Shown one piece after another: positions 21,843 through 25,163 of a stretch of 64,000 nt of DNA. Every line of letters begins with the position of its first letter. Position 1 is the stretch's first letter. The stretch is from sequence record NC_055721.1; one strand, written 5' to 3'. The DNA is from Escherichia phage EcS1. Both the position numbers and the translations under genes were made by a program. The notes under the pieces were generated by a model. The model was not told where the DNA came from. It did no database searches and saw only the letters and a program-made list of their open reading frames with translations.

Positions 21843-22346
21843 TTAGAACGAACTTTTTACTACTTGTGGTTCTTTAACGAGTTTGAAACGAGAAATGCCT
21901 TTAAAAACAATAACTTCATCATAAGTATTTTCATGAAGCCATGCTGCAGCCCACTCTTCTGCTTGTTTTTCGCTCAAGTTTTTCGCACGAATCAAGAAAT
22001 CGGTATCTTCTTCTCTAGCAACAAGACAACCATAGTCTAAATCTTCTAGAACTGGTTCAACTTCTTTTTCTGGCTCGTAGTCTTTAACTTCTGTGAAGTA
22101 CTGGTATTCGTTTCCATAAATCCAGCAATCACCATACCCTTGTCTTGAGAACTGTCCAAGTTCATCTAAACGATAAAGCTCTTTCTTACCATCAAAGCTG
22201 ATTTTTAGAACATCAGTGTTATTAACTAGTTCAGTAATCATAAACGGTTTATTGCTGAGATAGTTTGCAACTGCAGTATTGATAGTAGGCGCTTCTTCAA
22301 CAAATTCAGCCGCGTCAGCTAGTTTGTACCAGTGGTTTAATTCCAT
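21843..22346 (-). CDS. Hypothetical protein
   Basis: 167-aa ORF preceded by UUCG hairpin and GAGGAAATT RBS. Confidence 0.45.
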   Translation of the reverse strand: MELNHWYKLADAAEFVEEAPTINTAVANYLSNKPFMITELVNNTDVLKISFDGKKELYRLDELGQFSRQGYGDCWIYGNEYQYFTEVKDYEPEKEVEPVLEDLDYGCLVAREEDTDFLIRAKNLSEKQAEEWAAAWLHENTYDEVIVFKGISRFKLVKEPQVVKSSF

Positions 22347-22361
22347 AATTTCCTCAAAGTA

Positions 22362-22375
22362 GGGCCCGAAGGCCT
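22362..22375 (-). promoter_or_regulatory. Intercistronic UUCG-tetraloop hairpin
   Basis: Plus strand GGGCCCGAAGGCC between adjacent minus-strand genes. Confidence 0.55.
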
Positions 22376-22380
22376 AGTTA

Positions 22381-22746
22381 TTAAGCGATTGTGGTCCAGT
22401 TATCTAAATTGATAACACCTTTATCTTTCATTTGTTGAATCAATGCTTCAGCACGAGTACGACCATTTTCATACCATGTGCAATCTTCATCATCATAAGT
22501 CTCAGAACGAATGCGACCTAAGATGACAGTTTTCAGAACATATTCTTCACCAGTAAACCAGTTAGTCAAACGAATTTTCCAAGAGAAATCATCTGACTGA
22601 CCATCAGGAGTCATGCAATAAACCAGTTCAAATTGCTCCATAGATAATCCCCACTGAAGTTCTTTAACTGATTGAGCTTTGTAGCCATCATGATCTTTGC
22701 ATTTGATGAAAGCGTTCAGATTAATAGTTTTCATTTTATTCTCCAT
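22381..22746 (-). CDS. Hypothetical protein
   Basis: ORF; start at ATG 22746 or 22734 (GGAG RBS); promoter upstream. Confidence 0.4.
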   Translation of the reverse strand: MENKMKTINLNAFIKCKDHDGYKAQSVKELQWGLSMEQFELVYCMTPDGQSDDFSWKIRLTNWFTGEEYVLKTVILGRIRSETYDDEDCTWYENGRTRAEALIQQMKDKGVINLDNWTTIA

Positions 22747-22763
22747 TTGTTGATTGAGTGTAC

Positions 22764-22791
22764 ATCTTAACACAATCCTAGGAGAAGTAAA
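22764..22791 (-). promoter_or_regulatory. Early promoter (-35 TTTACT, 16 bp, -10 TAAGAT)
   Basis: Minus-strand reading; initial transcribed sequence shares TGATTGAGTGTACA with promoter at 21811. Confidence 0.45.
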
Positions 22792-22795
22792 CACC

Positions 22796-22990
22796 TTATT
22801 TTACATGACTGAATTCTACATCAGACCAGATGCCGAAAGGCGGAAGATTAGGTTCTTCTTTAAAGGCTAACTTTTTGACATCAGTCCAAGGCCAACAGCA
22901 AACTTCGTGCTCGTATAACCAGCATGTTCCTTGCAAAGGACTCTCAGGATGCATTTCTATAATTTTATAAACCAAAGTTTTCTTGAACAT
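22796..22990 (-). CDS. Hypothetical small protein
   Basis: Start moved to internal ATG with GAGGTG RBS; the track start lies inside the terminator hairpin. Confidence 0.35.
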   Translation of the reverse strand: MFKKTLVYKIIEMHPESPLQGTCWLYEHEVCCWPWTDVKKLAFKEEPNLPPFGIWSDVEFSHVK

Positions 22991-23015
22991 ATTCACCTCA
23001 TACAGATACAAAAAT

Positions 23016-23033
23016 GGGAGACCGAAGTCTCCC
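23016..23033 (-). terminator. UUCG-tetraloop terminator (GGGAGAC-UUCG-GUCUCCC then AUUUUUGU)
   Basis: Plus GGGAGACCGAAGTCTCCC; member of a dispersed repeat family. Confidence 0.7.
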
Positions 23034-23038
23034 ATAAC

Positions 23039-23218
23039 TTATGCTACAGCTCGCGGCTTTCCAAAACGAGAAGCATCGTCGCGTAACACGGCTCGTGCAC
23101 GACGCATAATCTTCTCAACTGTCTGATTAATACGCTTGTTCGACCCACGCTTATATTTCGCGCGTTTAGAGGTACCAACTACTTCTTTAACTGCTTGTTT
23201 CTTAGCTTGCTTAGCCAT
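23039..23218 (-). CDS. Small highly basic protein (59 aa; MAKQAKKQAVKEVVGTSKRAKYKRGSNKR...), not in ORF track
   Basis: ATG to TAA ORF verified by manual translation; Lys/Arg-rich; followed by terminator. Confidence 0.4.
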   Translation of the reverse strand: MAKQAKKQAVKEVVGTSKRAKYKRGSNKRINQTVEKIMRRARAVLRDDASRFGKPRAVA

Positions 23219-23539
23219 TTTATTCTTCCAATCTTGGAGTAAAGTTAGCTCTATGACTTACGGTTTCCCTGCATAGAGCCGTTTTCTGTTTGGTCATTTC
23301 ATGGCAGACCTACCAGAAGGTTTCGTTTATTTTACGTCTAGATAACCTACAACTACGACATCATACTACTTCTATCTGTTGCACACCGTTAGCTGGCCAT
23401 AGGCTGGGTCCGGGTCAGATTTCTCTGGGATAGAATATACATCAATGACTGTATAGGCCATGAGGTCACTCGGATTGTGAATCATTGTCCATCCGGTAAC
23501 ATGCCCTTGCCGTAATATGAACAAGTCCTCAAGGGGTAC

Positions 23540-23788
23540 TTATTTCAAAGTCACGATGAAGTGACGGACTGCTTTACGAGCTGCAGAACACAATGGCTTA
23601 GCATATTTCAGTTCATCTTGAATAGCCAGTTCAGTAGCCAAAGCTTTCTGAGAAGGATTCAGATGTTTGAAATATTCCAGGATGTCGAGAGCTTCAGCTT
23701 TAACATCAATGGAAGCACCATAGTTATCATGGCCTGCATTCCAGGATTTACGTTGGATGTCGAGAATAGATTTGATTAGTTCTTGCAT
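23540..23788 (-). CDS. Hypothetical 82-aa protein, possibly RIII (lysis inhibition accessory) by size and position next to gene 31
   Basis: 82 aa as T4 RIII; adjacent to 31; sequence identity not verified. Confidence 0.4.
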   Translation of the reverse strand: MQELIKSILDIQRKSWNAGHDNYGASIDVKAEALDILEYFKHLNPSQKALATELAIQDELKYAKPLCSAARKAVRHFIVTLK

Positions 23789-23901
23789 TATAGAGCCTCA
23801 ATATGAGGTAAAAATTAGGAGACAATCATCGGTTAACTAAGGTCCGACTGCCATTATCTCCACATAGAAGTGATCCTGTTAATGGTCACCACTTCATAAA
23901 T

Positions 23902-24255
23902 TTATTTATACACTACGCCTAACGACTTATAATGCGCAGCTACAAATTTTTGTTTTACTTCTTTAGGTTGTTTAATACCTAAAGCAACAAGTGGATGAAT
24001 CACGTTTTTAAACGTTGGGTTACTTGCAAGATAAGGAACCAAATCACCTACTTCAATGAAACCAGTTGGAACTTCATCGCCAATGGAATGAACTTCCATT
24101 ACTTCTGGTAATTGACCTTGTGTTTCTTTGCCTAAAAAGATTCCAGATTCAGATGTTTTATCATCACCTGCTTGGGACGGTTCAGAGACAAAAATAATGT
24201 GCTCACCTAGAGCTTTAATTGGGAGTTCCATTTTATTACCTGTTTGGTAGACCAT
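23902..24255 (-). CDS. 31: Co-chaperonin gp31 (GroES-like, capsid folding)
   Basis: Matches T4 gp31 as recalled (LPIKALGE, VSEPSQAGD, HPLVALGIKQPKEVKQKFV, HYK). Confidence 0.85.
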   Translation of the reverse strand: MVYQTGNKMELPIKALGEHIIFVSEPSQAGDDKTSESGIFLGKETQGQLPEVMEVHSIGDEVPTGFIEVGDLVPYLASNPTFKNVIHPLVALGIKQPKEVKQKFVAAHYKSLGVVYK

Positions 24256-24287
24256 GAGTAAATAATATCACTCATGGTCTAAAGCAT

Positions 24288-24611
24288 TTAACCAACAAAC
24301 TTAACCAGATGTTCCATCTTCATTCCATTAAAGGAAACCAGTTTGTCGATGCTAAAGCCACGCCATTGTTTGATTTCAGTATCAAATGCTGGAACCATAT
24401 CTACAGCTTCTTTACGAGGCTTACTAGGATTCACATAGCTTTCATAGATTGCAGGGTCAACCAGTTTACCAATTACATCTTTATCACGAGAAGCTTTCAT
24501 TACACGCATGGTGCCATCAGCTTTTTCAAAGACTACTTCAGAAGTACCCATTGCCAGTTTAGTTTTCAAGACTTCACGCAGAGCTACTTTTTGATCTTCA
24601 GTTAATTTCAT
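24288..24611 (-). CDS. Hypothetical protein (31.1-like)
   Basis: 107-aa ORF between cd and 31. Confidence 0.4.
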   Translation of the reverse strand: MKLTEDQKVALREVLKTKLAMGTSEVVFEKADGTMRVMKASRDKDVIGKLVDPAIYESYVNPSKPRKEAVDMVPAFDTEIKQWRGFSIDKLVSFNGMKMEHLVKFVG

Positions 24612-25163
24612 TTATTCGATTCCACAAAAGTTTTCAATTCGATTCCAGTCAAGAGACTTCAAATTAGTACGAGAATATTCGATGACTTCAAGACCTGAAT
24701 CACGTAAGATGTCATCCCAATTATCAGGAGAACGATCATATTTTTCAGCATAAACAACTTTCTTAATACCTGACTGAGCAATAGCTTTAGAACAATCAGG
24801 ACAAGGAGAAGCTGTTACGTACATCGTGGCGCCATCAATAGACGAGCCATTACGAGCAGCAAACAAAATAGCATTCAATTCAGCATGGATTTCATTACGA
24901 GCAGACCAAGAACTATGGGCTACTCGATGTTCTGCTTTAAGACCTACTCGATGATGGCGTTCACCTGGAATAAGTTTACCTTTACCTAACCAACCTTGTT
25001 CTGCAGCATGGTCACAACAGTTTACACCACCAGATGGAGTGCCATTATAGCCAGTAGAAATGATGCGACCATTCTTTTCAATGACCGCACCTACCTTCCA
25101 AGAACAACATTTAGATTCTTGAGAAATCAGATATGCAATCTGAAGATAAGTGCTAGATTTCAT
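24612..25163 (-). CDS. cd: dCMP deaminase
   Basis: Zinc-binding cytidine/dCMP deaminase motifs HAE (VHAELNAI) and PCPDC. Confidence 0.85.
   Translation of the reverse strand: MKSSTYLQIAYLISQESKCCSWKVGAVIEKNGRIISTGYNGTPSGGVNCCDHAAEQGWLGKGKLIPGERHHRVGLKAEHRVAHSSWSARNEIHAELNAILFAARNGSSIDGATMYVTASPCPDCSKAIAQSGIKKVVYAEKYDRSPDNWDDILRDSGLEVIEYSRTNLKSLDWNRIENFCGIE

Follow-up and report, generated by a model that had tools for sequence, protein, structure and literature searches.

Why should a tightly packed phage genome leave an interval of some 320 bp without a gene? The question is raised by Escherichia phage EcS1 (NC_055721.1), of which a 64-kb stretch (64,000 nt, hereafter the window) was analysed. 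The window is part of a T4-like genome (Straboviridae, Tevenvirinae), and the Winklervirus phages are its closest sequenced relatives, with about 82% nucleotide identity. An initial annotation, made from the letters of the window, had placed the interval 23219–23539 between an rIII-like gene and the gene of a small basic protein. The two genes indeed belong to PHROG 1457 (rIII) and PHROG 1427 (gp30.9), and a scan for open reading frames (ORFs) found none of 60 aa or more in the interval on either strand, as had been noted. It appears that rIII and gp30.9 form a bicistronic transcription unit (rIII→gp30.9) on the minus strand, with the interval as its untranslated spacer. This interval holds a folded RNA that lies in the sense of the two genes and encodes no protein, and this RNA is present or absent as a clean cassette between close relatives. 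We consider it likely that the spacer is filled end to end with RNA modules, the dominant one belonging to an undescribed family of domains of about 155–160 nt.

A conserved RNA domain between rIII and 30.9

Taken alone, the sequence of the window made a weak case for structure: folding of the whole interval gave z-scores of −1.1 and +0.6 on the two strands. Structure was demonstrated by comparison with relatives. Both ends of the gap have counterparts in Winklervirus and Yersinia phage TG1, where about 160 bp in the middle are missing, and the middle piece of the window matches about 400 other T-even-type phages at about 70% identity. The element is a self-contained RNA domain with the following parts:

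23361–23520, minus strand: the complete domain of 160 nt, with P0 as its closing helix; the family has this one copy in the window.
23512–23520, minus strand: 5′ strand of P0, UCAUAUUAC, pairing with 23361–23369; 7 of 8 P0 pairs are changed on both sides in the family.
23501–23511, minus strand: 5′ strand of P1, GGC (23509–23511), followed by the internal-loop strand J1/2, AAGGGCAU.
23465–23500, minus strand: P2 arm, with GUUAC/GUGAC, CGGAU/AUCCG, a 3-nt bulge ACA, and GGA/UUC capping the 6-nt loop L2.
23482–23487, minus strand: L2, CAAUGA, kissing partner of L3.
23456–23464, minus strand: J2/1, CUCAUG, and the 3′ strand of P1, GCC.
23436–23455, minus strand: P3 hairpin, UAUACA/UGUAUA, whose loop holds UCAUUG (23443–23448), which kisses L2.
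23429–23435, minus strand: 5′ strand of P4, UUCUAUC, pairing with GAUAGAA at 23370–23376; 7 pairs, 99% paired, 3 of them covarying.
23416–23427, minus strand: P5 hairpin, CAGA-GAAA-UCUG; 3 of 4 pairs covary, and the loop (GAAA, GUAA or UAAA) is of GNRA type in most members.
23383–23415, minus strand: P6 (ACCCG/CGG-U-GU) with its 22-nt loop L6, which has the conserved blocks GGACCC and GCUAA.
23370–23382, minus strand: J6/4, GCAACA (invariant), and the 3′ strand of P4, GAUAGAA.
23361–23369, minus strand: 3′ strand of P0, GUAGUAUGA.

Three rounds of alignment were used to evaluate the fold. RNAalifold on 8 copies gave 38 pairs, 17 of them compensatory. A hand-drawn structure of 43 pairs, placed on the MAFFT alignment A3 (18 distinct copies), had 98.8% of its cells paired, with 20 of the 43 pairs changed on both sides. 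Alignment A5 contained 24 distinct copies with 8-nt flanks and included P0, for a total of 51 pairs; 96.0% of the cells were paired, 30 of the 51 pairs were changed on both sides, and all 8 helices, the kissing helix among them, had compensatory support. None of 500 shuffles reached the observed values, and sliding the partners by 1–3 columns lowered pairing to 31–40%. The minimum free energy (MFE) fold of the 160 nt of the window alone reproduces the P0–P6 fold of the family. The covariation among homologues thus bears out a small structured non-coding RNA, one of the candidates first offered for the interval. The outcome named beforehand as refuting it, a lack of conserved structure, did not occur: conservation of the fold is strong.

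P0, P1, P3 and P4 abut without linker bases and form a perfect four-way junction, and P4 carries a three-way junction with P5 and P6. The outer helix P0 ranges from 4 to 11 bp and has many unrelated sequences across the family. The pairs of P1 are 100% paired, with a C-G to U-A change at locus L014, and those of P6 are also 100% paired, with G-C to A-U in L014 and A-U to U-A in phage Cronus. In P2, 8 of the 12 pairs show changes on both sides; its register in the window and in L014 was set by eye. Between the helices, about 35 unpaired bases are near-invariant even in the three most divergent lineages. They comprise J1/2, whose family form AAGNGCAU is invariant and unpaired, the J2/1 strand, and the blocks GGAMCC, GCUAA and GCAACA.

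The kissing interaction between L2 and L3 consists of 6 bp and was added by eye to the RNAalifold fold. L2 is always the exact complement of L3: the combinations UGAUGG/CCAUCA, CGAUGG/CCAUCG and UAUGG/CCAUA occur in the family, and CAAUGA/UCAUUG in the window, L014 and Cronus. Its 6 pairs are 100% paired in the 24 sequences, and 3 of them covary. P3, the kiss and P2c would form one rod of about 16 bp, and P1, the internal loop and P2a/b another, which fits two side-by-side rods joined at the A-rich bulge of 2–3 nt. Arm lengths of about 16 bp-equivalents on each side would also fit an intramolecular kiss. Neither a canonical kink-turn (K-turn) in the P1/P2 internal loop nor the 11-nt GAAA receptor was found by eye, and an all-against-all column scan for extra tertiary pairs yielded phylogenetic noise only.

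The region is truly structured, as the initial annotation had supposed, but the element is not built around the two features that annotation had pointed to, an 8-bp stem and a pair of direct repeats: the stem belongs to a small hairpin of its own (see below), and the repeat arises from an insertion specific to the window copy. The repeats GGCCATAGG (23395–23403) and GGCCATGAGG (23456–23465) are there, 61 bp apart, but direct 6-mers are at the shuffled mean. The second copy lies in the J2/1-P1 strand. The first is created by a 7-nt insertion private to the window copy, which places CCUAUGGCC in L6 (23389–23410, minus strand). CCUAUGGCC nearly duplicates the J2/1-P1 strand CUCAUGGCC and could be an alternative partner for the 5′ strand of P1.

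Distribution of the element and its behaviour as a cassette

A covariance model (CM) of the family, R1, gave one hit in the window, at 23368–23514 on the minus strand (120.7 bits, E 6e-24), and found no copy in the T4, Winklervirus or TG1 loci. By BLAST, the element is present in 381–399 phage records of Tevenvirinae, at one place per record except for one record with two. The hosts of the carrier phages are Klebsiella, Escherichia, Shigella, Enterobacter, Yersinia, Citrobacter, Salmonella, Raoultella, Edwardsiella, Serratia and Erwinia. In these relatives the element is almost always unannotated.

The wider searches stayed within T4-like phages. A two-block pattern scan of metagenome contigs returned 93 stretches, of which 14 were true after CM filtering, all from consensus-type T4-like phages. 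In 100,044 bacterial and archaeal genomes the scan gave 25 pattern stretches, all of them spurious after CM filtering. Only T4-like phage contigs were found in IMG/VR, and a loosened viral scan added phage Cronus alone. As for an origin or a target in the host, no blastn match was obtained in 5,426 E. coli genomes with E up to 10.

At all 27 loci with located flanks the element lies between rIII and 30.9 in sense orientation. It starts 9–135 nt past the rIII stop codon and ends 74–203 nt before the 30.9 match. In the rIII-30.9 spacers of 20 loci, short modules form mosaics that are ordered differently from phage to phage, with the large block present or absent; the order of the element relative to the smaller pieces (hairpin A and modules B and S, described below) also differs. 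The T4 spacer, 244 bp long, differs from that of phage ACG-C40 by a clean indel of about 170 bp at CTCTTGAATGT|...|ATGATGACG.

The consensus-type element is 92–100% identical between genera whose rIII genes share 67–82% nucleotide identity. Between ACG-C40 and JS98 the element is 100% identical, compared with 81.7% for rIII and 71.4% for 30.9. The whole spacer of these two phages (L004 and L010) is 95.9% identical over 368 aligned nt, above both flanking genes. Such identity across genera means either that constraint is very strong or, more likely, that the cassette has recently spread by recombination. Old, divergent lineages are represented by the copies in the window, L014 and Cronus, which stand at about 70% identity and still keep every helix. 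The RIII protein of the window is 94% identical to that of Winklervirus (L001, L020), yet Winklervirus has no RNA cassette, and that of the window has its nearest counterparts (about 74%) in the Erwinia phages Cronus and COW86c, which makes the locus a mosaic.

Probable transcription unit and neighbouring genes

The genes flanking the gap, for dCMP deaminase, a gp31.1-like protein, gp31, RIII, the gp30.9-family protein and gp30.8, are all on the minus strand. The main coordinates are as follows:

24612–25163, minus strand: dCMP deaminase gene.
23902–24255, minus strand: gene of the co-chaperonin gp31.
23540–23788, minus strand: rIII, upstream cistron of the unit (PHROG 1457, "lysis inhibition accessory").
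23039–23218, minus strand: gp30.9-family gene (PHROG 1427), with a very basic 59-aa product; start codon at 23216–23218.
23014–23035, minus strand: C(UUCG)G hairpin with a U tract directly after 30.9, the first intrinsic terminator of the unit.

The terminator behind 30.9 is the sole intrinsic terminator on the gene strand between 22700 and 24300, and no G+C-rich hairpin with a U tract was found within 23219–23539. Motif scans of the window spacer revealed no sigma-70, early-type, MotA-type or late-promoter motif. rIII, the spacer and 30.9 would therefore be read as one transcription unit. In L004 and L018, too, the first terminator follows 30.9, and the rIII-spacer-30.9 layout is repeated in ACG-C40 and PEi20. 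The T4-type late-promoter motif TATAAATA is located at 23903–23910 (minus strand), overlapping the gp31 stop codon and directly upstream of rIII; an identical placement is annotated in phage SA21RB. A weak TTTACG-N16/17-TATTYT sequence, seen by eye just upstream of the element in Tequatrovirus and Dhakavirus, was considered as a promoter of its own; it falls below the scan threshold and was not relied on. Early, middle and late promoters have been reported for rIII of T4, whose product binds ribosomal protein S1 (PMC9409239). On that basis the RNA could be present throughout infection.

No relative of gp30.9 was found in Pfam, NCBIfam or the PDB; at most, its very basic composition makes a nucleic-acid-binding role plausible. 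gp30.9 is present in T4, which has no RNA element, so the protein and the RNA are not obligately linked.

Possible roles of the element

What does the domain do? Closure by P0, free spacing to the genes and free order among the modules suggest that it is an autonomous RNA domain, and not a riboswitch or operator that depends on spacing. The explanation we tentatively prefer is an accessory "RNA gene" that binds a partner. The element would be transcribed within the rIII-30.9 mRNA from promoters upstream of rIII. The junction would serve as a scaffold, with the P1-P2 arm next to the short P3 arm and the L2-L3 kiss locking the two, and would display the near-invariant unpaired bases. Through these the folded domain, possibly trimmed from the mRNA, may bind a host or phage protein and act on it as a decoy, sponge or recruiter. 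The cassette would be swapped between co-infecting phages as accessory ORFs are.

Several points weigh against this preference. Partner binding is read from the architecture and the position-independence alone, and the strict synteny with rIII and 30.9 fits service in cis to that mRNA equally well. T4, the sole phage with deep transcript data, has no element. Phylogenetically the family is narrow: a single consensus type accounts for about 20 of the 24 distinct sequences, and the independent variation comes mostly from about 6 lineages (the window, L014, Cronus, COW86c, PS2 and the consensus group), so that counting covarying cells gives too high a figure for independent events. Relatedness is not corrected for in the shuffle control. 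Covariation fits an intramolecular and an intermolecular kiss alike, and the thermodynamic z-scores of the domain are weak (−1.8 and −1.7).

A bolder proposal, which we regard as rather unlikely, is that the element founds a functional class of its own: accessory RNA genes of T-even-type phages that involve no protein, pass horizontally between phages as cassettes and use their invariant unpaired bases to act in trans. Such an RNA might inhibit a factor of host defence or RNA decay or serve as a decoy for it, sense a small molecule, be a new ribozyme, or self-assemble into a particle by intermolecular L2-L3 kissing. The rIII-30.9 spacer would then be a landing pad for RNA cassettes, an idea that arises because the T4 spacer carries a different covarying module (module E, below). 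Readings other than a partner-binding RNA, a cis role and an aptamer or ribozyme, self-assembly by intermolecular kissing among them, take up the remaining probability.

It is rather unlikely, though the location speaks for it, that the domain is a cis-acting mRNA element which, together with the neighbouring hairpins, protects or insulates the rIII-30.9 transcript through stability, processing or anti-polarity. It could stand in the way of RNase E scanning or of 3′ exonucleases, keep Rho from loading on a long untranslated spacer, or determine how stable the two cistrons are relative to each other, and no trans partner other than the decay or termination machinery would be required. The constant placement of the element inside the unit in sense orientation accords with such a role, as do the lack of a promoter or terminator of its own, a spacer that is structured throughout and more conserved than the flanking genes, and the fact that P0 begins within a few bases of the rIII stop codon in several genera. 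However, simple hairpins would suffice for this task, which leaves the four-way junction, the covarying kiss and the roughly 35 invariant unpaired bases unexplained, and T4, Winklervirus and TG1 keep the rIII-30.9 unit without the cassette.

Comparison with known RNA families

Complexity of the kind seen in the element (several helices at a junction, a loop-loop contact, invariant bases at the junction) is typically found in aptamers and ribozymes. The hairpin ribozyme and the Mn2+ riboswitch come to mind for the side-by-side adjacent arms at a four-way junction, and the lysine and purine riboswitches for the L2-L3 kiss. An aptamer of a new class, riboswitch-like, or a self-cleaving ribozyme could accordingly control or process the rIII-30.9 mRNA, but we hold this to be improbable. 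The Rfam scan that had been proposed for the interval (Rfam 15, 4227 models, cmscan in E-value mode, E up to 10) gave no match, riboswitch and ribozyme models included, overlapping the element in window positions 22500–24500, L004, L165 or L006. Matches to the Rfam families PhrS and BTnc231 were merely the terminator hairpin of 30.9. No Rfam hit was obtained to a self-cleaving ribozyme consensus (hammerhead, twister, twister-sister, hatchet, pistol, hairpin or hepatitis delta virus-like), and no conserved candidate cleavage site was identified. The sequences CCAGAGAAA and AUAUUAC of the window resemble loop B of the hairpin ribozyme, and they are not conserved in the family. Unlike generic riboswitches, the element has no conserved expression platform at a fixed distance: the 74–203 nt between it and the 30.9 start are occupied by interposed, reordered modules.

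In architecture the lysine riboswitch (L-box, RF00168) comes closest. It shares with the element a domain of about 160–180 nt, one closing helix, a multi-helix junction and a position in an mRNA leader in sense orientation; in both, a 6-bp L2-L3 kiss, which a bend in the longer P2 arm makes possible, keeps two neighbouring hairpins alongside each other. This is an architectural analogy only. There was no RF00168 hit; the element has a four-way and a three-way junction where the riboswitch has a five-way, lysine-binding junction; and no K-turn was seen. It occurs in phages, not upstream of lysine genes, and lacks a fixed expression platform.

Other small phage RNAs were also compared. The pRNA of the phi29 family (RF00044) is a phage RNA of about 120–170 nt whose ends pair in a closing helix and whose junction presents two complementary loops, but it gave no CM match, its loops pair between molecules in the portal ring, and the element is dispensable, T4 being without it. 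To our knowledge, packaging of the T4 type needs no RNA. The species 1 and 2 RNAs of T4 (rnaC and rnaD) are small structured RNAs of a T-even phage that are cut out of a longer transcript; they differ by their location in the transfer RNA (tRNA) cluster and their tRNA-like 3′ parts. A filter-off cmsearch of the T4 tRNA region returned only noise (best score 3 bits), and ARAGORN found no tRNA or transfer-messenger RNA gene in 22000–25000.

The PeSL cassettes of T4-type phages are likewise short, non-coding, located in plastic regions and shuffled by recombination (Arbiol 2010, PMC2839356; Comeau 2014, PMC4122927). A PeSL consists of an early promoter and a terminator-like stem-loop, with many repeats per genome (PMC2839356, PMC4122927), whereas the element has no promoter match, is single-copy, is three times longer and has a complex tertiary fold. 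The "ornate" RNAs ROOL and GOLLD are phage-associated, strongly covarying and complex in fold, with kissing loops at their centre (bioRxiv 10.1101/2024.12.08.627333). At 500–800 nt they form homo-oligomeric cages, in contrast to the 160 nt of the element, and they are unrelated to it by CM. No description of the element emerged from literature searches, whether by topic or by sequence string; the strings matched only in unrelated enterovirus and cytomegalovirus papers. We conclude that the element represents a new RNA family built from known motifs.

Strand and coding capacity

In favour of a DNA-level element (a replication origin, or a recombination or packaging signal) are the non-coding sequence, the slightly higher G+C and the recombination as a cassette. 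The initial annotation had counted an origin among its candidates and had described the interval as locally GC-richer. A rise is indeed present (G+C 0.43–0.46 against about 0.34–0.40 nearby), but it is modest, and the adjacent 30.9 gene reaches 0.48. Constraint acts on one transcribed strand: in the pairs of the family 37 cells are G·U and 8 are A·C, so the functional strand is the gene-sense strand, the minus strand of the window. Covariation between two loops, moreover, has no meaning in duplex DNA. No MotA-type middle promoter as at T4 oriF and oriG was found (TGCTT...TAnnnT, sense strand, 23201–23800), and the known T4 origins are reportedly located elsewhere. We therefore consider a role at the DNA level very improbable.

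A small gene or its decayed remnant is the least credible reading, practically negligible: a 50-aa TTG frame does cross the element of the window and ORFs of 44–64 aa are annotated over it in ACG-C40, UPEC01 and COW86c, but these begin at TTG or CTG and use different frames, every member has at least one stop in all six frames inside the domain, lengths of 131, 134, 135 and 143 nt differ by other than multiples of three, the substitutions are compensatory base-pair changes, and a pseudogene would not stay 92–100% identical across genera.

No sense frame is open across the family, and several members have multiple stops in each sense frame. The statement that at most about 37 codons are open in the interval holds for ATG starts; with the starts of table 11 the longest frames are 50 aa (TTG, minus strand, 23372–23524) and 47 aa (plus strand). 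The 50-aa frame had no Pfam hit. The GenBank "hypothetical proteins" annotated over the RNA are L004 1147–1341 (ACG-C40_0208a), L007 1160–1336 (QQG30986.1) and L006 1236–1370 (COW86c_228). Probably these are false calls that recur in many of the roughly 400 genomes.

Smaller modules in the spacer

The rest of the window spacer is occupied by short hairpins:

23522–23541, minus strand: hairpin A, AAGU-A-CC-CCUUGA-GG-ACUU, which reaches into the rIII stop codon (its last two bases) and lacks a U tract.
23319–23359, minus strand: module B, hairpin GUCGUAG-UUGUAGGUUAU-CUAGAC with the tail GUAAAAUAAACGAAACC; conserved loop, present in all relatives including T4.
23292–23310, minus strand: module S, small hairpin GGUC-UGCCAUGAAAU-GACC, identified by eye only.
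23248–23279, minus strand: hairpin D, GCUCUAUG/CAUAGAGC, in the MFE fold.
23224–23239, minus strand: hairpin CUCCAA-GA-UUGGAAG, in the MFE fold, which can sequester the Shine-Dalgarno sequence (GGAAGA) of gp30.9.

Hairpin A is conserved, stands before or after the large RNA in different phages, and is not called a terminator. The basal stem of module B covaries (U-A/A-U and C-G/G-C in 11 sequences), and its folding energy is weak. Hairpin A and the loop of module B are each single-copy in the window and are therefore not genome-wide repeats of the PeSL type. Module B was also considered as a small ORF (ATGATG...); in the window it meets a stop at codon 4, and relatives have frame-shifting indels. 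The stems of module S, CAC/GUG, CGC/GCG, UGC/GCA and GGUC/GACC, were drawn by eye around a loop that is conserved in relatives.

Hairpin D is the 8-bp stem first noticed in the interval. Its arms, GCTCTATG and CATAGAGC, are present at 23248–23255 and 23272–23279, but at chance level, as 12% of shuffles hold a perfect 8-bp stem. Winklervirus and TG1 keep 7 of its 8 pairs, and other genera have unrelated hairpins instead. The early suggestion of a long structured leader for the downstream basic-protein gene proved essentially right, in view of the hairpin that can pair with the Shine-Dalgarno sequence and of an interior without promoter or terminator matches. The CUCC...GGAAG arrangement before 30.9 is conserved in most genera, which suggests that 30.9 is subject to translational masking.

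The rIII-30.9 spacer of T4 (L026, NC_000866 about 2167–2250, minus sense) carries another structured module, module E, of about 90 nt, and so do L004, L007, L010, L011–13 and L019. It is a long interrupted helix around a UAAUGAUU-UGCG-AAUCAUUA hairpin, for which RNAalifold gave 25 pairs in 6 sequences, 6 of them compensatory. Module E had no Rfam hit and is absent from the window. Its presence in T4 suggests that the rIII-30.9 spacer is a general site for RNA cassettes.

Implications

No viruses have been studied more intensively than the T-even phages, yet an RNA as complex as this one is apparently unrecorded, with no Rfam family and no paper found, probably because T4 lacks it. Among the roughly 400 sequenced carriers are many Klebsiella, Enterobacter and E. 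coli phages isolated for therapy, in whose genomes the RNA is left blank or mis-annotated as a hypothetical protein. With the covariance model annotators could remove a recurrent false ORF. The fold is compact, strongly covarying and definable without a protein gene, which makes it directly testable. If the element is an accessory RNA effector, the concept of the phage accessory genome would be extended from proteins to RNAs.

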